Shown: positions 3,614 to 20,000 of the stretch, piece after piece
Numbering within the stretch: the first letter of the stretch is position 1
Layout: each line of letters starts with the position of its first letter
IMG/VR virus record: IMGVR_UViG_3300030333_004050
DNA length: 20,000 nt
From: an uncultured virus (IMG/VR IMGVR_UViG_3300030333_004050)
Lineage: Duplodnaviria > Heunggongvirae > Uroviricota > Caudoviricetes
Reading direction: 5' to 3' (one strand)
Made by a program: the position numbers and the translations under genes
The notes under the pieces: generated by a model
Databases searched by the model: none
The model's input: only the letters and a program-made list of their open reading frames with translations
Told to the model about the DNA's origin: nothing

Positions 3614-4443
3614 CACCAGCAAATAAGACATTCAAGGCATCAGAAGTGTTAGAGGACGACGAGGCATTCGAGCAGGCCGCTACTACTGGCGGACTTGGCC
3701 GTAAATTGGCTCTCTTGCGTCTCCTAAGCGGCGCAAAGGTGGAAGTGGGCGAAATACCCACTGAACACAACGCGCGCTGTGAGTGGCTCGGTAGGGCTAT
3801 CATACAGGAACTCCTTGACCGCCAACAGAAGATAGACCACAGGGAACATTGGGTGGTTGCCGAGTATCTCAACAATCTCGGTTTTGAAATCGTCCACCTG
3901 GAAACAGGCAAGGGTGATGTCTCCAGCCGACGCGTCTCCGTCGAAAGAAAGGAAGATGACTTCCTACCGAGTTTGTTTGACGACAGAAGACTGAGACAGT
4001 TGGGGGCAATGAGAGAAGAAGCCGAGTTCTCATATCTCGTAGTCACGAAATCGTATAATGAAATCAAGGCTGATGTAGCAATGCGTGGAGTCAATGAGCG
4101 AGTTCTCATTGGGTATATTGCATCCTTATGCGCGGTTGGCTATCCACCAGTCTTCCTACCGGATAGACACGACGCGGCTGAGTTGATACGGAGAATCGTC
4201 GAGAAGGTTGAGGACGACGAACCTCGCATCTTCGTTCCACGACCGAAAGGTGCTTTGCCGAGAGATTATCGAAATGCAATAATCGAATCATTGCCGAAGG
4301 TTGGACCTAAGACGCGGCGTAAGTTGGTTGATGCTTTTCCTACCATTGCAGAACTATGCAATGCGACTCCCGAAGACCTCTCAGCGATAGAAGGAATCGG
4401 CAAAAAAACTGCAACTAAGATATTCGAGTGCCTGCATAGTTAA
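3610..4443 (+). CDS. ERCC4/XPF-family structure-specific nuclease with tandem HhH motifs
   Basis: GD-x8-ERK-x2-D motif (GDVSSRRVSVERKEDD), plus HhH motifs LPKVGPKT and IEGIGKKTA. Confidence 0.9.
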   Translation: MTPANKTFKASEVLEDDEAFEQAATTGGLGRKLALLRLLSGAKVEVGEIPTEHNARCEWLGRAIIQELLDRQQKIDHREHWVVAEYLNNLGFEIVHLETGKGDVSSRRVSVERKEDDFLPSLFDDRRLRQLGAMREEAEFSYLVVTKSYNEIKADVAMRGVNERVLIGYIASLCAVGYPPVFLPDRHDAAELIRRIVEKVEDDEPRIFVPRPKGALPRDYRNAIIESLPKVGPKTRRKLVDAFPTIAELCNATPEDLSAIEGIGKKTATKIFECLHS

Positions 4444-5362: not shown

Positions 5363-8300
5363 TGTCGAGGAAGAGAGACTTAAGGAAAGAAGCCGCTAAG
5401 CGTCTCGGCAGAAAAACCACTGATGATTCATTCGTAAATCGCGCTCGGCAGAAGGCTAACATATCCGACGAAGACGCTCTCGGACCTGCGCCACCACCTG
5501 CTTTACCAGTCGGCCCTCAAGGCCCAATCGGACCTGCACAGGACGGCTTGACTACTGTTAATTGGCGTGGTGTCTATTCTGATGACATAGAGTATCAGAT
5601 GGGCGACGCAGTATTCTATGAAGGGTCATCATACATACGCATACGAAAGGGAACTACCGTAGGCAAAGTTCCAACGAAGAAGCGATATTGGGATGTTCTC
5701 GCTCAACAAGGCGGCATCGGACCGAGTGGACCGGAAGGGTCGCAAGGTATTGCCGGACCGAGTGGACCTGCTGGTAGTGCTGGCCCTGCTGGAGATGACG
5801 GACCTGCTGGACCTACTGGACCTGCTGGGCCACCTGGCCCGACAGGAGCGGACTCAACAGTAGCCGGACCTGCTGGACCTGCTGGGCCTGCCGGACCTAC
5901 TGGACCTACTGGCCCTGCTGGCCCGACTGGAGATGACGGCCCTGCTGGGCCTGCCGGACCGCCTGGCCCAACTGGAAGCACTGGACCTCTCGGACCAACT
6001 GGTGATACTGGACCGACTGGACCAACTGGTTCTCAAGGACCACAGGGAGATACTGGACCTCAAGGCGACGCCGGACCTACTGGTCCAACTGGTCCTACTG
6101 GTCCTACCGGACCAACTGGACCTCAAGGAACTAAGGGTGAACTTAGCGGATTTCGCTATGAGTTTGACTCAGCGACGACTGGAACTGGAGTTGGTGCTGG
6201 TATTTTGCGTCTAAACAACGCAACTCCTTCATCGGCTACAAGTCTATTTTTCCACACAACTTCTGACGATTCGATTTCAGTTGCAGATTTGATGACACTT
6301 CTGAGTGGTGCAACTTCAACAAAGAAGGGTCATTTGATTCTCAAAACATTAGCCGGAGATATTCTGACTGCTACTATCTCGGACATTTCTCTTGCGTCGA
6401 GTATCTATACTGTCACAATTGCGGATGCTACTTCCACAGGAACATTCAGTGACGCCGAAGAAGTATATCTCGAACTCTATCGTATAGGAGACAAGGGAGA
6501 CACTGGAAGCACTGGGGCAACTGGCCCTACCGGACCAACTGGACCTGCTGGTTCAGATGGCTCAGATGGTGCAGATGGCTCAGATGGTGCAACAGGACCA
6601 ACTGGACCTACTGGCCCTACTGGCCCTCAAGGTGCTACTGGACCTACTGGACCTACTGGGCCTGCCGGAAGCGACGGCTCGGACGGGTCTGATGGTGCTA
6701 CTGGTCCGACTGGTGCTACTGGTCCTACTGGACCTACTGGAAGCACTGGTCCGACTGGACCTACCGGACCGGATGGTAATTTTGGTGGTGCTACATTTGA
6801 CTACACATTTAGCACGAACACAACTGACTCCGACCCAACACAGGGCAAACTCAAGTTCAACAACGGAACACTTGCGTCCGCGACTGAACTGTATATTGAC
6901 GACGAGGATGACAACGGAACTGACATTCAATCATTCTTGAGAACGATTGATGATTCGACCTCGACGATTAAAGGACACTTTAGAATAAGCAACCGCTTAG
7001 ATGCGAGCGACTTCAGACTTTTCACAATCAGTGCTGTCACTGAGGCAACTGGATATTTCAAAGTCTCATGTGCGTCAGTAAGTGGGTCGGCAACTTCATT
7101 CTCAGATGCGGAAGATGTAATCATAACATTCGCGCGCACTGGAGATAAGGGAGACACTGGTTCGACTGGCCCAACAGGACCAACTGGAGCGGATGGCCCG
7201 ACTGGCCCAACAGGACCAACTGGTCCGGCTGGTAGTGATGGTTCGGACGGCGCGGATGGTGCTACTGGCCCAACAGGGCCAACAGGGCCAACTGGCCCGA
7301 CTGGAAGCACTGGAGCGGCTGGGCCAACTGGCCCGACTGGTCCTACCGGACCTGCTGGGTCTGATGGAGACGATGGTGCAACAGGCCCGACTGGCCCTGC
7401 TGGTCCAACAGGCCCGACTGGGCCTACTGGAAGCACTGGACCTACTGGCCCGACTGGACCGGAAGGGTTGGTTTGGGAAGGAGCATGGTCAAGTTCCACT
7501 ACTTACCAGGTGGACGACGCTGTCACACACAACGGAACTTCTTACATTGCGACTGCTTCACATACTGACCAAGAACCACCGAATGCTTCGTATTGGAATG
7601 TCTTAGCGTCAAAAGGTGACACTGGTTCAACTGGTTCAACTGGGCCAACTGGTCCGGCCGGACCGACAGGGCCAACTGGGCCTGCTGGTTCAGATGGAGA
7701 CGACGGTGCTACTGGGCCGACAGGGCCAACTGGACCTACTGGGCCGACAGGGCCGAGTGGGTCTGACGGAGACGACGGTGCTACTGGCCCTACTGGTCCA
7801 ACAGGACCAACTGGAAGTGCTGGGCCAACTGGTGCTACTGGACCAACTGGAACTGCCGCCGGATTCGGAACTCCTACCGCAAGCACTGGACCAATAGGAG
7901 TCACAGCAAGCGGACCGGACACGGCCAAAGTATTCGCATTCACAATACCTGCCGGAGACACTGGACCTACTGGTCCGACAGGGCCGACAGGGCCAACTGG
8001 TCCGGCCGGAAGCGACGGAGATGATGGAGCGACTGGCCCAACTGGACCTACTGGCCCAACTGGACCTGCGGGTAGTGATGGTTCAGACGGAGCAACAGGC
8101 CCGACTGGGCCGACTGGTCCTACTGGTTCAACTGGAAGCACTGGTCCTACTGGTCCGACTGGACCTGTTGGGCCATCGGAAGGTGGAATATGGAGATTCG
8201 GAAATGCAACCGGAGCGTCTATTCCATCAAACGGTTATTTCAAAGTCAACAACGCCACATGGTCGAGTGGAACTCACATTTACATTAACAGGCTTGACAA

Positions 8301-10329: not shown

Positions 10330-10347
10330 AACTAAGGAAGTGAATAC

Positions 10348-11064
10348 ATGGGAAGACAGCCATTTAGACAAATGAAAAGCGACGGAACAATGGAAGAAGC
10401 GGCAGACGCAAGTGGCGGTGGGAAGTTTAGCACCGGACTTATCAACACAACAAAGGATAAGTTGTTGATAAATGACAACTCTTGGCCTCTCCACGCCTGC
10501 ACTGTGTATAGTGCTGGTGAAGATTCAAGACAGACTGCGTATTCTTATGACAATAGCCACTACTATACTACATACTGGCCTTTCATAGCACCGAGAAGCG
10601 GAGACATAAGTAAAATCAGTATCTATGTCGGAACTGTTCACGGCTCGGAGTCATCAGTCGCAATTGGTATTTATGACGCGGCTGACGGACACATCAACGA
10701 CCTGTTGGGAACGGCGACTTTTGCTGGCGGTGAGGGAGAGGCTATGGCCTCGTCGGGAACGAAATCTCAGACTTCCTTTGAATCAAATGTGGGTGAAGGC
10801 GATTCGCAAACTATTACTCTCGTTGAAGGCAACAAGTATTTTTACGCATACAAGAGAGATAATACAGATACGACAGACATAGACTTCTATGTGGATGGAA
10901 GCAACAAGGGTGCAACAATCATGAGGGCCGTTCCTTCCAACTGGGGTAGCACTGGGTATCTATGCTTCTATAATAATAATTCAAACTTACCCGTTAATGA
11001 AGCGGCTATTGGATGGATTCAACACGCAGGCCGCTCTCGGATGATGTGCTGGATAGAAATGTAA
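10348..11064 (+). CDS. Hypothetical protein, probably virion/fibre-associated
   Basis: 238 aa, Ser/Thr/Gly-rich, between the fibre and chaperone genes. Confidence 0.7.
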   Translation: MGRQPFRQMKSDGTMEEAADASGGGKFSTGLINTTKDKLLINDNSWPLHACTVYSAGEDSRQTAYSYDNSHYYTTYWPFIAPRSGDISKISIYVGTVHGSESSVAIGIYDAADGHINDLLGTATFAGGEGEAMASSGTKSQTSFESNVGEGDSQTITLVEGNKYFYAYKRDNTDTTDIDFYVDGSNKGATIMRAVPSNWGSTGYLCFYNNNSNLPVNEAAIGWIQHAGRSRMMCWIEM

Positions 11065-14346: not shown

Positions 14347-14390
14347 GCGCGACCGAAAGAGTGAATTACCGGAGAGAGATATTTCACGGT

Positions 14391-14936
14391 ATGTCAGAAG
14401 ACATAGATGAGTGGGATGGAGAAACACTACCAGCCGAACCGGATAACGAACCCCTCGTGCGTTGGATAGCACAGATGTTGGTTCGTGGAACACGGCCGTC
14501 AGACATACGCCGAAAGGTGAATGAAGCCTCAATAGAGAAGGCTCTCACCCCCGATGAGTGGATTTCACTTATGTCCGATGCAACCGAACTCGCAAAAAGC
14601 ATGAAAGATATGGTAATCATGAAAGCAGAACTGGAAGATACGGACTGGCTTAGGTTGGACTCGTATTCCAGGCGGCGTAGGGCGTTGGAAAGAATGGAGC
14701 GTCTGATAATTCGAGCGGAAGAGCAGGCCGATACTGTCAGTAAGTTGGGCCAGGTGTCGTTCATGGTTGGTGGGATGATGAAACAACAGGACCAACTCGA
14801 TAAGATGAGCGGCGCGCAAGACGCGAAGCCGCAAGTTGTAGTCAACATTGGCTACGACCCGTTGGAACAGATGAGAGAAGTAATCGGAAAGGAGATTATA
14901 GACATCGAAGCGAACGACGAAGACGAAGAGATTTAG
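14391..14936 (+). CDS. Probable terminase small subunit
   Basis: HTH-like N-terminus, helical hairpin, 'LDKMSG...QVVVNI' C-terminal strand and acidic tail. Immediately followed by iterated repeats. Confidence 0.5.
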   Translation: MSEDIDEWDGETLPAEPDNEPLVRWIAQMLVRGTRPSDIRRKVNEASIEKALTPDEWISLMSDATELAKSMKDMVIMKAELEDTDWLRLDSYSRRRRALERMERLIIRAEEQADTVSKLGQVSFMVGGMMKQQDQLDKMSGAQDAKPQVVVNIGYDPLEQMREVIGKEIIDIEANDEDEEI

Positions 14937-15092
14937 CCGATACTTAGCCGATACTTTGCACATTTTTTGCACATCTCATTTAGCCGATACCTACGATGAT
15001 TTTTGCACATCATTTAGTCGATACCTGCGATAAAAATTGCACATCTGGTGCATTTTTGGAACTGGTGTAATTTTTGCACTGGTGCAATTTTT
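14933..15092. repeat. Iterated short-repeat array (candidate pac/terminus or origin)
   Basis: TTAGYCGATAC x4 (14933, 14944, 14980, 15014), TTGCACAT x4, 34-bp tandem units 14977-15010 and 15011-15044, and CTGGTGYA(A)TTTTT x3 at 17-bp period (15045, 15062, 15079). Confidence 0.85.
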
Positions 15093-15120
15093 ACACTACT
15101 TCGGCGCGCGCGTCATTTTG

Positions 15121-15203
15121 CCCGTGTCGAGATGGGATGGGGGTATATAATCTTTTGGTTATAGGACTCTCAAACTATCAGAAACGAAAGGTTTATACCC
15201 GAA
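15121..15203. repeat. Divergent-promoter module R1
   Basis: CCCGTGTCGAGATGGGATGGGGGTATATAATCTTTTGGTTATA...ACTATC...CGAAAGGTTTATACCCGAA. Confidence 0.8.
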
Positions 15204-15260
15204 GGCTTCCCGTAAGGGGGTGGTGGGGCGGGCGCGTCTGTCCGCGCGGCATATCCCCGC

Positions 15261-15315
15261 AGTCCGCCCCGTGTCTGAGATGGGATGGGGGTCTATAAAC
15301 TTTCAGTTTAATATA
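15261..15315. repeat. Module R2 (leftward half conserved)
   Basis: AGTCCGCCCCGTGTCTGAGATGGGATGGGGGTCTATAAACTTTC. Confidence 0.75.
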
Positions 15316-15503
15316 GGTCAGATTCAATATAGCACCCTATACGCGCGCGCGTAGTAGTAAAGGGGGGTTTGGGCCTGGATTTTGGGGGTTTGGCTTGGTC
15401 CGTTTTTCGGGGGAGTATATAAAAGACAGACTATATTTGCCCAAACCTTTATACCAAATGCTCTCGTGGCTCAGATTACCCAACAAAGGGGGAGAACGAA
15501 AAC

Positions 15504-16067
15504 ATGAACACCGAAACAACCGAAACAACCGAGACGACTGAAATGGTCACTATCGACCGCGCTTCCGGCGCAGTTGTGACCGTTGGTGCATTTGGTGGCC
15601 TTGAGGCCGCTATACGCGCTAACAGAAACGCCATAGGCGGCGACACCACCGCTACGGCCCGTGAGGTCAACGGAGAGGACTCCGTGACCGAAGCGACCTT
15701 CGTTATCTCAAACGAGGCGACAGGCGACACAATCCGCCTATCCGGCGACATAATCGTCGGCGCATCATACGACCGCACACAACCGACCGCACTACCACTG
15801 AACGCGCTTAACCTATTGAGCGCATCACTACTCGGAATGCTACGCCCTGCCGCTCGCAACGCGGCTATCGCGGCAATCGAGGCAGGCATGGACGGCGCAC
15901 CTTCTGACGAGGTCGCGCAGGGCATCCTTGACGCAGTGAACCTATCCGACGAAGCCCTTGAGGCAGGTCAACAGGTTCTCGCCGACATGAGGCGAGTTAG
16001 CACCCGCACTGTTAGCGCATCGGTTCGCTTTGACACCAACACCGCCGAGTCCGGCGTGAGGGTCTGA
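15504..16067 (+). CDS. Hypothetical early protein (187 aa)
   Basis: Long ORF. Upstream are AAACCTTTATACC (about 15443-15455) and a GGGGGAG RBS; the N-terminus has TET repeats. Confidence 0.8.
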   Translation: MNTETTETTETTEMVTIDRASGAVVTVGAFGGLEAAIRANRNAIGGDTTATAREVNGEDSVTEATFVISNEATGDTIRLSGDIIVGASYDRTQPTALPLNALNLLSASLLGMLRPAARNAAIAAIEAGMDGAPSDEVAQGILDAVNLSDEALEAGQQVLADMRRVSTRTVSASVRFDTNTAESGVRV

Positions 16068-16076
16068 GCGGGTCTG

Positions 16077-16219
16077 AGAAGGGCCAATTTCTTCTGACTT
16101 ACATAACCACTACTGGCGGCCTTCGGGCGGCCAGTGGTGGCCCTCTTAGAGGGGGCGGGTGTGGTGGCCCGCCCTCTCAACCATTCGCGGGCCGACAGGC
16201 TCGCAGTGGCCCTTTTTTT
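16077..16219 (+). other. Multi-branched structured 3' element ending in a T7 tract (terminator or small RNA)
   Basis: Closing helix AGAAGGGCCA/TGGCCCTTTT. Inner hairpins include a C(UUCG)G-capped one at 16107-16140. Confidence 0.6.
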
Positions 16220-16241
16220 CATTCCGGCCTGGCGGCGCGGG

Positions 16242-16342
16242 AGTCCGCCCCGTGTCTAAGACGAGATGGCGGTATATAATCTTTAGGTTATATTACTCTT
16301 GACTATATACTGATGCAAACTATCTAAACATCTATAACCGAA
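16242..16342. repeat. Divergent-promoter module R3
   Basis: AGTCCGCCCCGTGTCTAAGACGAGATGGCGGTATATAATCTTTAGGTTATA...ACTATA...AAACATCTATAACCGAA. Confidence 0.8.
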
Positions 16343-16360
16343 ACACCCCCAGACCCCGCC

Positions 16361-16708
16361 ATGACTGGCGGGCGCGTCGAAGGGCGAGGGGCTATCCAGT
16401 CAGTAGGAGATGAAGAAGAAATGAAATGGATATTGGAAAAGAATGAGTATAACGGATGCTCAGTATTGAGGGGCGACAGACAGACCCTCAACTGGGCCTT
16501 GAATGGGTTGTGTGAGCCGTGTCATCACGCGCTACTCCATAACCCAGTATGGCGCACATTACCGCGCGCCTGTCATGCGAGTGGGTTCATCCACAAAATA
16601 ACAGACGAGAACATATACGAGTCGCTTGAAGCATGGACCTTCTGCAAGACCTGTTCAAAAATTGTTGAAGCCGACGAGCCAATCAACAACGACGAACCGG
16701 ACTTCTGA
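16361..16708 (+). CDS. Cys/His-rich hypothetical protein (start 16361 or 16421)
   Basis: CEPC...CKTC motifs. ATG 16361 is at leaderless distance; ATG 16421 has a GGAGATGA RBS. Confidence 0.7.
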   Translation: MTGGRVEGRGAIQSVGDEEEMKWILEKNEYNGCSVLRGDRQTLNWALNGLCEPCHHALLHNPVWRTLPRACHASGFIHKITDENIYESLEAWTFCKTCSKIVEADEPINNDEPDF

Positions 16709-16717
16709 ATAAACTAA

Positions 16718-16754
16718 GACGGCCCGTCGTCAGAATACTGGCGGCGGGTCTGTC
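16718..16754 (+). terminator. GC-rich 3' hairpin
   Basis: GGCCCGTCGTCAG-AATA-CTGGCGGCGGGTC, a 13-bp stem with G-U pairs. No T-tract. Confidence 0.45.
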
Positions 16755-16851
16755 AAAACAAACGAGAATATAGGCTTTTGAGGGTATATACAACACAACC
16801 TTCATAAGGGGGAACACATACGCACAACCAAGAACAAAGAGGCGAAACACC

Positions 16852-17178
16852 ATGTCAAACTACTGCACACGAAGAGAAGACGGACAAATCAGAAACCAAA
16901 TGACCGAGTGGGGAACAACCTTTGAGGCGCGACGCGACGGCGTCATCCCTCATTCCATGCCCCTCATCAGACTCGGAGAAATCGCACCAACTGGTCAACT
17001 TCAAGGAGAGGGTTGGGGTGCTGACAACAACATGACACTTGAGCAAATGCGCGACCTATTCGGAGAGGACCAACTCGTCTATCAAGGCGACCTTCTCGGC
17101 TACGCGCACCTTTGGGTCTTAGAGTGGTCATTCGACCGACTGGCGGTCAACTGGTTTAACGACGGGGTGGTCGCTTGA
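16852..17178 (+). CDS. Hypothetical protein (108 aa)
   Basis: ORF with GAGGCG upstream; the leader (AACAAAGAGGCGAAACACCATG) resembles that of ORF 15504. Confidence 0.7.
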   Translation: MSNYCTRREDGQIRNQMTEWGTTFEARRDGVIPHSMPLIRLGEIAPTGQLQGEGWGADNNMTLEQMRDLFGEDQLVYQGDLLGYAHLWVLEWSFDRLAVNWFNDGVVA

Positions 17179-17390
17179 GTCGAATGAACATTATCGCGGC
17201 TAAGGGCTACTTGACAGGCAGTCGAGACTTGTCGTGCGACTGCGGAAACAAAGACCTTCAAGTCTCAGTGTTTAGAGGCATCAACGACTTCTTGACTTTC
17301 AGTTGCCTAAAGTGCAACGACGCGAGGTCATATTCTCTTGAAGAGTTGCTTGAGCAAGGCCGAGAGGACGACGAGGGGGCGAGTGAATGA
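17175..17390 (+). CDS. Small zinc-ribbon protein
   Basis: CDCGN...CLKC; overlaps both neighbours. Confidence 0.65.
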   Translation: MSRMNIIAAKGYLTGSRDLSCDCGNKDLQVSVFRGINDFLTFSCLKCNDARSYSLEELLEQGREDDEGASE

Positions 17391-17578
17391 GTAAGCGCAT
17401 TGACCGTCAGCGTCTCGTGCGGGCCAGTGGTCGCTCTCGTGCGGGCAAGAGAGGAAAGACAATCATTCACCCAAAGTGCGGTTCAGCGTTCAAGGTGTAT
17501 CACTTCGCGTGGTCCGCCTGCGTCTGCAAGTGCGGCGAGGTTGTCGAGCGCGAGGACTTCTTGCATCTCGTCGGCTAA
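17387..17578 (+). CDS. Small basic zinc-finger protein (63 aa)
   Basis: HPKC...CVCKC; GAGTGA RBS and ATGA coupling. Confidence 0.65.
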   Translation: MSKRIDRQRLVRASGRSRAGKRGKTIIHPKCGSAFKVYHFAWSACVCKCGEVVEREDFLHLVG

Positions 17579-17747
17579 TTGTCACCAGTGACAAAACCGA
17601 CCCTTCACACTGGACGGACGCCGAAAGGCTAAGTGCTAAGGAGACGCGTCAGCGTTTGAGCAACGGCCAGGATTTCTCAAGGGGTAAAATATCGAGTGTC
17701 CGAGTCGGGGGGTTGGCGAGCCTGCGTTTGCCCCGCACCCCTGCTCA

Positions 17748-17827
17748 CCCATGTCGAGATGAGATGTAGGTATATAATCTTTTGGTTATATGATTCTCTA
17801 ACTATATACAACCAAATGTTTATAGGG
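17748..17827. repeat. Divergent-promoter module R4
   Basis: CCCATGTCGAGATGAGATGTAGGTATATAATCTTTTGGTTATA...ACTATA...CCAAATGTTTATAGGG, with ATG 17848 at leaderless distance. Confidence 0.8.
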
Positions 17828-17847
17828 GGGAATGCCTACGACCCACC

Positions 17848-18402
17848 ATGACAACCACCACCTGCGACTACTGCGACACCTGCGCGCCTTCCGGTGCGAC
17901 TGACATTAACCCAAGAGTAGCCAACCCAAACAACCCACCTGCGGACCATTCTCACGCCGTGAGGCTTAACAGAAACGGCCACGAGTGGTTCTTGTATGAC
18001 AACGGGTGCGACTACTGCGACGCTGACTGGGCGGCTCTAATCTTAATCAACGGAGACTCAATGCTTCATCAGTTTAGCGTCGTCACTGACGCGCTTAACG
18101 CATACGACATGGCGCGCTGGGGTTCGACCTTCGGACACCCTCGCGGGTCTGACGAGGTTAGAGCGTTGTTCAGTGAATACATGACAGGGTATGGAGTATG
18201 GGGAAACCGCACTGTCAATGTCTGCCCCGACTGCTTCGACGCTGACGCGCATACAGTTGACCGCGACACTCCAGTCTTAGGAGTCAACTGCATGGACGCT
18301 GAGGCGCGCGCGGCCATGTGCGAGAGGGCAACTGCTTTCGGAGAGGCTGACCGTTTGGTTGACGAGGCAAACCGCAACTGGAGACACCCTCGCACCATGT
18401 GA
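17848..18402 (+). CDS. Cys-rich hypothetical protein (184 aa)
   Basis: CDYCD twice, plus CPDC. Bounded by the R4 promoter and a terminator. Confidence 0.8.
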   Translation: MTTTTCDYCDTCAPSGATDINPRVANPNNPPADHSHAVRLNRNGHEWFLYDNGCDYCDADWAALILINGDSMLHQFSVVTDALNAYDMARWGSTFGHPRGSDEVRALFSEYMTGYGVWGNRTVNVCPDCFDADAHTVDRDTPVLGVNCMDAEARAAMCERATAFGEADRLVDEANRNWRHPRTM

Positions 18403-18425
18403 GACAACTCACTGCTTCCATAAAC

Positions 18426-18469
18426 GGGAGTCCGTCGCCAATCCTGGCGGCGGGCTTCCACCTTTTTTT
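18426..18469 (+). terminator. Hairpin plus T7 terminator
   Basis: GGGAGTCCGTCGCCA-ATCC-TGGCGGCGGGCTTCC, a 15-bp stem, followed by TTTTTTT at 18463-18469. Confidence 0.75.
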
Positions 18470-18493
18470 GGTCGAGGTTCGCCGCGCGCAGTG

Positions 18494-18584
18494 CGTCCAC
18501 CCCGCTCTTGAGATGGGATGTAGGTATATAAACTTTCGCTTATATGATACTCAGACTATCATAACCGAAACCTTTATACCCGAA
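18494..18584. repeat. Divergent-promoter module R5
   Basis: CCCCGCTCTTGAGATGGGATGTAGGTATATAAACTTTCGCTTATA...ACTATC...CGAAACCTTTATACCCGAA. Confidence 0.8.
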
Positions 18585-18599
18585 CCCCTACTCCGTTAA

Positions 18600-19120
18600 T
18601 TTGTAGTGAAGGCGGGCGTCCTTAGTGACCCTGCTGGATTAGAGCGAGTCACCTTCGCCGCGCGGAACTTAGTAAGTATGCAAACCGAACGGTGCGTTAA
18701 TGCGGCGACCCTGTCTCGTTCTGAGTGTTGGTTTGGGAGATGTAATTCGGCCGCCCTTCGGGGCTGTGGCGTCTTCTCCTTAACAATCCGCGTTGCCTAA
18801 CCAGCGCGCGGGGGGCTTTCCCAACTGGTGAGAGAGGATGTGTGGTTCGCCATGCGCCAACGAAGGAGACGGCTGTGGTGGCTTATGGACTGGAACTAAC
18901 ACGCTACATCTGAGACTTGGGTGGTTTTGTAGCCTGTGATATACAACGACCTATCATGCGGGGGAAATAGGCAATCCCCGCGCCCATTTCTCAACCTATT
19001 CCATCGGGGATAGGGGGGAGACAATAATCGACCTGTAATCCCATAGTGGGGCGCGCTCGGCCGAGCGAATAATAGACCTGTAATCCTATGGTGGGGCAGT
19101 CTTCTTCCCTATTCCCATCT
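18600..19120 (+). ncRNA. Candidate large structured non-coding RNA of unknown family
   Basis: Starts about 21 nt after the R5 TATA box and has no credible ORF. Serial stems with many G-U pairs on the + strand and two UUCG loops. Confidence 0.55.
19023..19097 (+). repeat. Two 30-bp direct repeats flanking a perfect 14-bp palindrome
   Basis: AATAATCGACCTGTAATCCCATAGTGGGGC and AATAATAGACCTGTAATCCTATGGTGGGGC (27/30 identical). CGCTCGGCCGAGCG at 19054-19067. Confidence 0.85.
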
Positions 19121-19416
19121 TACTATATACAACTACTATTTACTGTTGATTAGAATTAATGATGAAGATAGAGAGAGCATTGGGGCATACACACAACAGG
19201 GGGTAAAGTGTGTGTGTGTGCTATGGTCCTTCCAGGTTGCATCATTCTTTTCTTTGATTAAATACGGAGTGGCGTAGCCTATCGGTTTTGCACCTGGCTT
19301 AATGATGGGTTTTACTTACACCAAAAAATCAACGAACATATAGTCTGAAAAGTATGACTGCCGATTTTAGAAAAGAAGCCTTCATCATTGTTTTTGATAG
19401 TTATATGAAGTTAATG

Positions 19417-19444
19417 TTATATACCCTAACCCAGTGCGAGGGGT
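19417..19444 (+). promoter_or_regulatory. TATA box for a leaderless operon
   Basis: TTATATA at 19417-19423, 21 nt before ATG 19445, the same spacing as at 667/696. Confidence 0.7.
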
Positions 19445-19612
19445 ATGGCCGGAAGAATACCGCACCATCAATACAACCGAATACGCAACCGCTACTTGAC
19501 CCGACTGTCAACCTCTCCGTATGGACCAATCACTGAGAGTGAGGACACTAAGGTTCAACTAATCAACGCGCTGACATACATAGCCGTTAGAGAAAAACTG
19601 GTGGTGGAGTGA
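19445..19612 (+). CDS. Hypothetical protein (55 aa, not in ORF track)
   Basis: MAGRIPHHQYNRIRNRYLTRLSTSPYGPITESEDTKVQLINALTYIAVREKLVVE. Leaderless start; ends in a GGTGGAGTGAATG junction. Confidence 0.65.
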   Translation: MAGRIPHHQYNRIRNRYLTRLSTSPYGPITESEDTKVQLINALTYIAVREKLVVE

Positions 19613-19741: not shown

Positions 19742-20000
19742 ATGCAACTGTTCTATCTGACTGAGAATCACAAAATGAACGCGGCCGCGCATTGCGACCC
19801 TCATGTCGTGAAAATGCCTATCGAGGCTATGCAGTTAGCGGTGACGGCAGTCTATCACGCAACAGACCCACTCACGCCCGCGAAGCATGAGAAGTATGGG
19901 TTTGGCGTCAGACGACGAAAGACCGGACCGAATCGCAATCTCAAGTCTGAGTTTATTCACATACCACTCAACAAGGACGGCGAGCCAATGAAGCCGACAC
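19742..20000 (+). CDS. Pyrimidine-dimer DNA glycosylase (DenV/endonuclease V-like family), 3'-truncated
   Basis: MQLFYL...AAAHCDPHVVKMPIEAMQL..TA...MKPT matches the 'MNIF.L...A..HCDKHVVKM..E.AQLL.TA...YK.TH' family pattern. Confidence 0.75.
   Translation, partial: MQLFYLTENHKMNAAAHCDPHVVKMPIEAMQLAVTAVYHATDPLTPAKHEKYGFGVRRRKTGPNRNLKSEFIHIPLNKDGEPMKPT

Follow-up and report, generated by a model that had tools for sequence, protein, structure and literature searches.

The DNA analysed here (the window) is a stretch of 20,000 nucleotides (nt) from an uncultured tailed virus (IMG/VR record IMGVR_UViG_3300030333_004050; Caudoviricetes), in which five intergenic repeat modules, R1 to R5, lie between about positions 15,121 and 18,584. 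The interpretation preferred here, with moderate confidence, is that these modules are composite cassette boundaries carrying a promoter mounted head-on to the genes, in a clade of marine tailed viruses that are most likely Marine Group II magroviruses. Read along the gene strand, such a boundary would be made up of the hairpin and T-run of the upstream gene; about 38-40 nt further on, a head-on archaeal-type promoter (an A-rich side resembling a transcription factor B recognition element (BRE), TTATATACC, the spacer CATCYCATCTC and the block CACGGGG(T/C)GGAC); an AT-rich stretch with TATA-like boxes every 15-16 nt; and a rightward promoter that precedes the start codon of the following gene by 28-31 nt. 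The anatomy of the modules, their conservation, the fixed spacing, the parallel use of the element in a sister clade and the gain, loss and replacement of cassettes were observed in the sequences. As to function, the head-on element would fire leftward in vivo as a class-specific promoter, its conserved spacer may be where a regulator specific to this promoter class docks, cassettes could be insulated from read-through and from their neighbours by the initiation complexes or transcripts that face them, and the ~50-100 bp of shared sequence would provide homology for cassette exchange, as in the promoter early stem-loops (PeSLs) of T4-type phages.

By comparison with published systems, the modules are of a kind already known, that of the intergenic repeats of the archaeal tailed virus HF2 and of the PeSL boundaries of T4-type phages. 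New here are the constant spacing that separates a head-on element from terminators, the flip of orientation between clades and the probable magrovirus setting.

Modules R1 to R5 in the window

Matches to the core pattern GAGATGRGATGNNGGTATATAA (up to 3 mismatches) were found at 15129, 15277, 16258, 17756 and 18510, all on the + strand; elsewhere in the 20-kb window there were none, and 200 dinucleotide-preserving shuffles gave a mean of 0.00. Since five matches stand against none expected by chance, the five shared copies proposed in a first-pass annotation of this DNA are considered real. A repeat search returned the same five places as direct-repeat family D2, together with a 77-nt family, D1, formed by R1, R3, R4 and R5. 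Mean pairwise identity among the five copies was 0.85 for the 22-nt core and fell to 0.64 and then 0.42 over two successive stretches of 25 nt, with 0.24-0.30 in the flanks; because the core exceeds both the parts to its right and the flanks, the left half is the best-conserved part, as had been claimed. The copies are thus repeated, lie outside coding regions (all five are intergenic according to the open reading frame (ORF) list of the window) and are kept in relatives, which is how HF2-type repeats are recognized. Cores of the TTATATACC type occur in the window in the left halves of R1-R5 and at 19417 only.

The left halves, all read on the - strand, are located at 15118..15157 in R1 (first base of the TATA box 15150, predicted start ~15119-15122; nhmmer E 2.4e-09, 0 mismatches), 15258..15304 in R2 (a TTATAGACC variant; predicted start ~15267-15270; E 5.3e-12, 1 mismatch), 16240..16286 in R3 (predicted start ~16248-16251; E 2.0e-11, 2 mismatches), 17740..17784 in R4 (predicted start ~17746-17749; E 1.2e-10, 0 mismatches) and 18493..18538 in R5 (predicted start ~18500-18503; E 2.0e-12). 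R5 has the best BRE and TATA box, CGAAAGTTTATATACC, at the place on the minus strand where the first-pass annotation had seen it.

The core is followed on its right by AT-rich sequence in which two additional TATA-like boxes stand ~16 nt from each other, and then by an ordinary rightward promoter; each module has four TATA-like boxes in all. In R1 the rightward BRE/TATA (15185..15200, +) consists of CGAAA followed by TTTATACCC at 15192, and no ORF follows. In R3 the TATA-like box TCTATAA at 16331 (16331..16363, +) stands 30 nt before ATG 16361 of a gene of 115 amino acids (aa), and in R4 the TATA box TTTATAGG at 17819 (17819..17850, +), one of the 22 gene-proximal promoters used below, stands 29 nt before ATG 17848 of a 184-aa gene, a leaderless-mRNA geometry. 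R5 has TTTATACCC at 18573 (18565..18581, +), with a predicted start at ~18601-18604. These rightward TTTATA-type boxes lie to the right of the left TATA by 48 (R1), 58 (R3), 48 (R4) and 48 bp (R5), so that the distance of ~45-55 bp given in the first-pass annotation holds for R1, R4 and R5, with R3 slightly outside it. R2 is a split module: its detached right half (15416..15455, +; family D3; TTTATA at 15448-15453) is separated from the left half by a distance given as 156 bp or as about 110 nt, and serves as promoter of the gene at 15504-16067, which is leadered, with GGGGGAG before its start. This split had escaped the first-pass annotation, as had the orientation of the element parallel to genes in a sister clade and the rightward promoter of R5 that feeds a candidate non-coding RNA, both treated below.

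Leftward of the modules, inspection of the ORFs found no credible gene, only antisense ORFs, and the earlier statement that the leftward promoter faces no gene is therefore retained. A 38-codon ORF leftward of R4 was rejected as a gene, being lost in the relative L063; the other ORFs 3' of the leftward starts were rejected as antisense ORFs of real genes.

Promoter grammar of the left half

Read leftward, the left half shows an A-rich, often CGAAAG-like BRE side, TTATATACC, the pyrimidine-rich spacer CATCYCATCTC and CACGGGG(T/C)GGAC at the predicted start. The gene promoters of the virus group have TTTATATACCC or TTAATACC, a C-rich spacer and the start codon at 28-31 nt. In seven sequences of the group, pairs of TATA box and ATG separated by 5-60 nt were counted for ORFs of >=40 aa; TT[TA]ATA stood 28-31 nt before the ATG in 18 of 44 pairs, against 1 of 19 in the opposite orientation. 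A weight matrix built from the 10 nt upstream of the TATA box in the 22 gene-proximal promoters gave R1-R5 scores of 0.0 to 3.4 bits leftward versus -1.6 to -6.7 bits rightward, and the BRE-like side of the left half exists solely in the leftward reading. The likeness to the gene-linked promoter at 19417, mentioned in the first-pass annotation, is confirmed by inverted repeat I1: the inverted partial module copy at 19393-19426 (repeats I1 and I2; feature 19393..19447, +) puts TTATATACC 28 nt before ATG 19445.

In total, 69 distinct contexts of the element were gathered from viral and metagenome contigs. Across them conservation spans roughly positions -30 to +42, counted from the TATA box, and then drops to background, so that it ends ~12 nt past the predicted leftward start. 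With the geometry taken from the TATA-ATG peak, the left half has, on sequence, the HF2-type arrangement of a BRE/TATA ~26 nt before the start and a conserved start block. The left half is thus supported as a predicted archaeal-type promoter pointing leftward, in line with its first description: it follows the grammar of the group's gene promoters, and its BRE side is present in that direction only. Transcription in this virus group appears to be of archaeal type, a reading to which two observations point, namely that TATA boxes stand 28-31 nt before ATG codons and that sigma-70 sites are no commoner than in shuffled sequence.

Orientation of the element and distance to terminators

In a sister clade of lower GC content (contigs G001 and G002, loci L035 and L036), core matches lie on the + strand in 9 of 10 cases in L035 and in 10 of 11 in L036, and by reading it is this strand that bears most of the small ORFs with a TATA box 28-31 nt upstream. 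The order there is gene, hairpin and T-run, 21 nt, element, a leader of ~50 nt, a second promoter and a leaderless ATG. In 13 of the 69 contexts the distance from the end of a T-run (6 or longer) to the following TATA box is 21 nt, and in 2 more it is 17 nt. Because the element runs parallel to genes behind terminators, it is regarded in the sister clade as a normal, sense-oriented distal promoter.

In the clade of the window (the window and L081-L084), all 16 core matches are antiparallel to the genes, and in 12 of these 16 a divergent ORF lies within 200 nt behind the element. The loci L082-L084 have, at the same place, a second class of left half, CTATAAAC..TTAACCCATATCACTAACCCC when read leftward and GGGGTTAGTGATATGGGTTAA..GTTTATAG on the gene strand, 36-38 nt after T-runs (L082 2883-2990, 5449-5480 and 6229-6260; L084 10748-10780 and 11529-11560). 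Twelve of the 24 copies of both classes face a terminator, and in all twelve the T-run begins 58-62 nt from the TATA box, which puts it ~30-34 nt past the predicted leftward start; the sequence in between is not alignable. In the complete relative G006 the 4 core matches all fall within 71.1-74.3 kb; 78 of the 95 ORFs of G006 lie on the other strand.

In the window, the hairpin and T7 at 16190..16219 (+; T-run 16213-16219) are the likely terminator of gene 15504-16067, and the R3 match follows 38 nt after the end of the run; this stem was read by eye, its loop being too long for the simple hairpin scan. The terminator of gene 17848-18402, found by the terminator scan, is a hairpin of 15 pairs and a T7 (18426..18469, +; T-run 18463-18469), and the R5 match lies 40 nt on. 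A stem-loop terminator combined with a promoter, which characterizes PeSLs, is hence present at R3 and R5 and in the 12 clade copies within a 5-nt window. R1 also has a spacing of 58 nt, but its run is part of the iteron repeats, and the R4 leftward element faces a GC-rich 3' region with no T-run.

Cassette turnover between modules

The block that contains the modules is anchored in relatives by homologs of 14361-14936 (73-80% amino acid identity) and of 19742-19999. Of the 8 window ORFs between these anchors, L081, L082 and L084 each have homologs of only 1-3, and in L082 the homolog of 17387 precedes that of 15504, which is a reordering. The modules are almost the sole alignable nucleotide sequence in the block, with 77-96% nucleotide identity to relatives versus 71-75% for the flanking conserved gene.

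The interval between R4 and R5 was found with one, two or no cassettes. The window has one (17848-18402, 184 aa). In a contig of 1025 nt (L048+L049) the left flank of R4 and the module are kept (92% identity) and are followed by two different cassettes, of ~62 aa (ATG 272) and 83 aa, each of which by reading ends in a hairpin and T-run, with a module 38-39 nt further on. No cassette is present in L063, where the module is an R4/R5 hybrid: the R4 left flank (81% identity) is joined directly to the right half of R5 and the RNA behind it (76% identity), and the overlap of the two alignments at the junction is the module. Indels and replacements end inside the repeats or at their end in the few cases examined, and the region is hyperplastic, with small genes lacking known homologs, both as in PeSL regions. 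The first-pass annotation had suggested PeSL-like cassette boundaries and had recommended looking in relatives for gene swaps between modules; the suggestion gains support from the gain, loss, replacement and reordering described here, with junctions in or at the end of a module, and the gene content does vary.

No Pfam or PHROG matches were obtained among the 6 cassette genes of the window. Three of them (16361-16708, 17175-17578 and 17848-18402) encode small Cys-rich proteins with CxxC pairs, zinc-ribbon-like by eye. In G006, an array cassette (L089:11949-12941, -; equal to L081 7784-8749) encodes a protein with ArdC-N and zincin-metallopeptidase parts, of anti-restriction type. The presence of this ArdC-like gene in the accessory block of a relative suggests that the block holds host-takeover or anti-defence genes, and it is therefore probably a site of host-interaction gene turnover.

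Identity of the virus

The window or part of it is contained in marine, seawater and estuary metagenome runs of nine studies. Its proteins include methyltransferases and a tail fibre of collagen-like type; the sole primase candidate is a weak Prim-Pol match (E 7e-4). G006 (IMG/VR; 80,697 nt; 100% complete by CheckV) has homologs of 16 of the 25 window ORFs in collinear order, and encodes an HK97-type capsid, portal, prohead protease and terminase, a family B DNA polymerase (PolB), a clamp loader resembling the RFC small subunit (280 bits vs a cutoff of 303) and a GroEL-type chaperonin (583 bits). No MCM, sliding clamp or RadA turned up in the scan, which took in 44 proteins. Magroviruses are described as combining a head-tail module with an archaeal-type replication set (PolB, RFC and an archaeo-eukaryotic primase, among others), and are presumed to infect Marine Group II archaea (PMC5434244); GroEL is reported there for groups B, B1 and C, and GroEL or thermosome for some groups (Philosof et al., PMC5434244). 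Judging from its gene content, the virus is likely a magrovirus of Marine Group II archaea; it is put no higher than likely in view of the three proteins that were not found.

Other searches gave little more on identity. Deposited virus records returned remote terminase, portal and tail-fibre matches only; the 191-aa flanking gene had no protein match in deposited phage records, the Prim-Pol-like protein had a match of 21 residues only against prokaryote genomes, and the ESM Atlas label for the capsid protein was 'Viruses' only. G006 also encodes a 2OG-Fe(II) oxygenase (L086:8915-9481, -) and a TET-associated glycosyltransferase (L089:2855-3772, -), a pair that hints at hypermodified DNA bases in the virus group.

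Comparison with known systems

The closest likeness is to the class I and II repeats of HF2 and other haloferacalesviruses (Russ, Pfeiffer and Dyall-Smith 2021, PMC8707807), which are also repeated intergenic blocks of an archaeal tailed virus. These have a TATA box, a BRE just 5' of it and a start-site block, exceed their surroundings in conservation and are kept in related viruses, as in the window; some are active in both orientations, and promoters are embedded in repeats with a spacing of 14-15 bp. In the mapped class I repeats, TATA box and start site both fall within conserved blocks, and mutation of the start block abolishes activity (PMC8707807). At the sequence level the two sets are not similar. 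Long sense transcripts start at the HF2 repeats, whose place and direction in the genome are the same in related viruses; by contrast, the present element is head-on in one clade and parallel in the other, is linked to terminators, bounds single-gene cassettes and is known from sequence.

PeSLs of T4-type phages, which are defined by cassette turnover of this sort (Arbiol et al. 2010, PMC2839356; Comeau et al. 2014, PMC4122927), resemble the modules in several ways. Both combine a terminator stem-loop with a promoter and recur in a hyperplastic region whose small genes are ORFans; in both, the events that add, remove or replace sequence between close relatives end in repeats, and the cassettes are transcriptionally self-contained, in the window by prediction. 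The modules differ in that their promoters have an archaeal BRE and TATA box instead of sigma-70 signals and that two of them stand back to back at each boundary, the conserved one pointing backward; the sigma-70-like early promoter of PeSLs has no counterpart site at any module. For this reason the modules are considered to work like PeSLs and not to be members of that family. A TATA-plus-inverted-repeat motif before most left-arm ORFs of the haloarchaeal tailed virus HGTV-1 (Sencilo et al. 2013, via PMC3950731) is likewise repeated, promoter-like and placed before many small ORFs, and a PeSL-like role has been suggested for it in print (PMC3950731); by its description, ORFs follow in the sense direction, unlike the situation at the window's head-on element.

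Divergent initiation, with antisense starts upstream of head-to-tail genes, is also known from the BRE-TATA-BRE promoters of Pyrococcus furiosus (PMC6640164). One TATA box is shared there and the starts are 49-50 bp apart; here there are two TATA boxes 48-58 bp apart, the predicted starts are ~100 bp apart, and the backward promoter is the better conserved.

Weighing of the interpretations

Several observations weigh against the cassette-boundary interpretation with its head-on promoter. The TATA box is nearly symmetric, and the BRE-side matrix, being weak (22 sites, a few bits), gives modest evidence on direction; the divergent transcripts from symmetric promoters in Pyrococcus furiosus were deemed non-functional (PMC6640164). 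No RNA contigs (X19, X20) cover 16090-16250, 17613-17750 or 18400-18505, which as contigs are uninformative on this point, the RNA data being Logan contigs of one sample that carry no strand or end information. Within the window the fixed spacing is limited to R3 and R5, since R1, R2 and R4 have no terminator. The evidence for cassette flux comes from a handful of contigs, and crossover in the modules is deduced from end points. Short contigs of one DNA run (X4) join modules backward, 18544 to 15129 and 18467 to 16234 (sides of 34-37 nt), and these module-module joints, with sides of 20-39 nt in all, may be rearranged variants, mini-circles or branches of the assembly graph at repeats. The host is assigned indirectly. 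The element has no match in one-per-species prokaryote genomes, and deposited phage and archaeal virus records gave no megablast match to the window or the array, nor to one module.

The left half might alternatively be the site of a virus-encoded regulator, with two CATCT/GAGAT half-sites by a TATA-like box, that acts in either orientation to activate or repress the promoter of the neighbouring gene. In favour of this, the element is found facing toward as well as away from the downstream promoter, and its place between terminator and promoter is similar in the two cases; outside the TATA box no part is more invariant than the tandem GAGAT repeat, and conserved blocks outside the core promoter have been proposed as regulatory motifs in HF2 (PMC8707807). 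Such a site is nevertheless considered improbable, because the block has a full TATA box, a BRE-like side and the promoter grammar of the group, and because its conservation stops ~12 nt past the predicted start, like that of the mapped HF2 promoters. Its distance to the proximal TATA box also varies with the layout, ~48 bp vs ~80 bp, and a variable distance to the promoter is unusual for an archaeal activator site. A second alternative, close to the small RNA genes of the first-pass annotation, is that the modules are genes of small or antisense RNAs, the leftward transcript being itself the product. It would pair with the hairpin and U-tract that end the upstream mRNA, or with the convergent R1 transcript, and in this way time when the cassette genes are shut off. 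The first 60-70 nt from every terminator-linked copy would indeed be complementary to the terminal part of that mRNA, convergent pairs (~45-55 nt between predicted starts) exist in four contig groups, and long counter-transcripts occur in HF2 (PMC8707807). Against this, the transcribed part is not conserved beyond ~12 nt and the same element precedes genes in the sense direction in the sister clade; R3-R5 lack a T-run on the leftward strand, and therefore no defined small RNA is predicted. The leftward stretches also lack cover by RNA contigs, which is not proof of absence. We accordingly regard RNA genes as improbable, and the earlier suggestion of an array of them was not upheld, the leftward sequence being unconserved ~12 nt past the start and no RNA contig lying there.

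Two further readings are given very little weight. In a bacterial host, the conserved block could be a rightward sigma-70-type promoter with an upstream element, given that TATAAT is contained in GGTATATAATC in R1, R3 and R4, that the terminators are classical hairpin-plus-T-run sites and that the chaperonin is GroEL-type. A sigma-70 scan, however, found 5 sites vs 4.1 +/- 2.2 expected, none of them at a module, and with no excess over shuffles this promoter reading was rejected; R2 and R5 lack TATAAT, TATA boxes stand 28-31 nt and not 7-12 nt before start codons, the clamp loader is RFC-like and the polymerase of family B, and GroEL is known in magrovirus groups B, B1 and C (PMC5434244). The extra TATA boxes could, finally, be decoys that soak up the host's TATA-binding protein and transcription factor B, with four TATA-like boxes per module and modules clustered in one region of the genome. 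We think this highly improbable: the complete relative G006 has only 4 copies, too few to titrate abundant general factors, and decoys would have no need for a conserved initiator region or a fixed distance to terminators.

Returning to the interpretation of the modules as cassette boundaries, a bolder form of it may be put forward, with low confidence, in which the backward promoter is a purpose-built insulator: its initiation complex would halt a read-through polymerase on the T-run (roadblock-assisted termination), the polymerase being met while its active site is still on the weak U-rich hybrid. Leftward transcripts would also cover the 3' hairpin of the upstream mRNA, and flipping the ~45-nt core would turn the insulator of the window's clade into the tandem booster promoter of the sister clade. 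This idea fits the fixed spacing of 30-34 nt, its sole support. If it is true, magroviruses would carry an orientation-switchable boundary element by which accessory cassettes become autonomous as well as exchangeable.

Both Marine Group II archaea and the viruses that infect them are plentiful in surface seawater but uncultured. The word 'promoter' does not occur in the main text of the magrovirus literature examined for it. The modules would give Marine Group II viruses testable transcription signals, namely at least 2 promoter classes, terminators and leaderless starts, and would mean that the cassette-shuffling logic known from T4-type phages, and suggested for HGTV-1, operates in marine archaeal viruses.

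Neighbouring features

Iteron-like arrays of interleaved TTAGCCGATAC and TTTTTGCACA units (14929..15100, no strand assigned; family D4) lie in the path of the R1 leftward element, and their length is variable in the DNA run X4. The junction at which an element faces iterons recurs in L035 (~10337-10500), L037/L039, L072, L081-L084, G001, G003 and other contigs. The array is possibly an origin or a regulator-binding array.

The R1 rightward and R2 leftward promoters stand face to face, with predicted starts ~50 nt apart. Convergent pairs of this kind, with starts ~45-55 nt apart, were found at 15192-15298 in the window, at 3042-3153 in L082, at 8770-8871 in L035 and at 5934-6040 in L036, each with a GC-rich, hairpin-forming segment between the promoters. 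Such a pair looks like a convergent-transcription switch.

No credible ORF follows the predicted R5 rightward start at 18601-18604, and the promoter there probably feeds an ORF-free transcript (18596..18945, +), considered a candidate for a non-coding RNA with structure. Over 18614-18943 metatranscriptome contigs have a word depth of 24-101, against 0-7 for the neighbouring genes; as a depth taken from contigs this is a hint only. Three contigs (two metatranscriptome runs, one sample) begin at 18614. In an alignment with the homologs of L063, L070 and L075 (A2), which ends near 18945, long invariant blocks alternate with variable, indel-rich stretches with hairpins; indel lengths include 2, 4, 5, 7, 11 and 29 nt, and no conserved ORF is present in the four sequences. 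The invariant blocks pair over long range in the consensus fold (columns 44-53 with 143-152, and 153-165 with 354-366), which has 67 pairs, 96.5% of cells paired and 3 compensatory pairs; at least as many compensatory pairs occurred in 5 of 500 shuffles. In a control with slid partners 39-52% of cells pair; the four sequences compared are those that gave the fold, which biases this control. The folding energy of the single sequence is not unusual (z -0.96). The Rfam scan of the whole window (E up to 1) gave as its sole match a chance miRNA elsewhere, so that 18596-18945 matches no family; nhmmer with the RNA alignment found no homolog in other loci, and a four-way alignment with the candidate RNAs of L035, L036 and L084 gave scattered similarity only. 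Taken together, 18596-18945 is a candidate for a new structured viral RNA of ~350 nt or more.

An ORF-free segment of ~230 nt behind a promoter is conserved between L036 (~3860-4090, +) and L035 (~7300-7520, -), in opposite orientations relative to the surrounding array; it is possibly another non-coding RNA cassette, inverted. The tRNA scan of the window returned none. Beyond the RNA of R5, two 35-nt direct repeats (86% identical, 45 nt apart) occupy 19018-19097, and are followed by a strongly AT-rich, ORF-poor stretch (19100-19440) up to the gene at 19445, of which the portion 19121-19223 is conserved in L081, L082 and L084.

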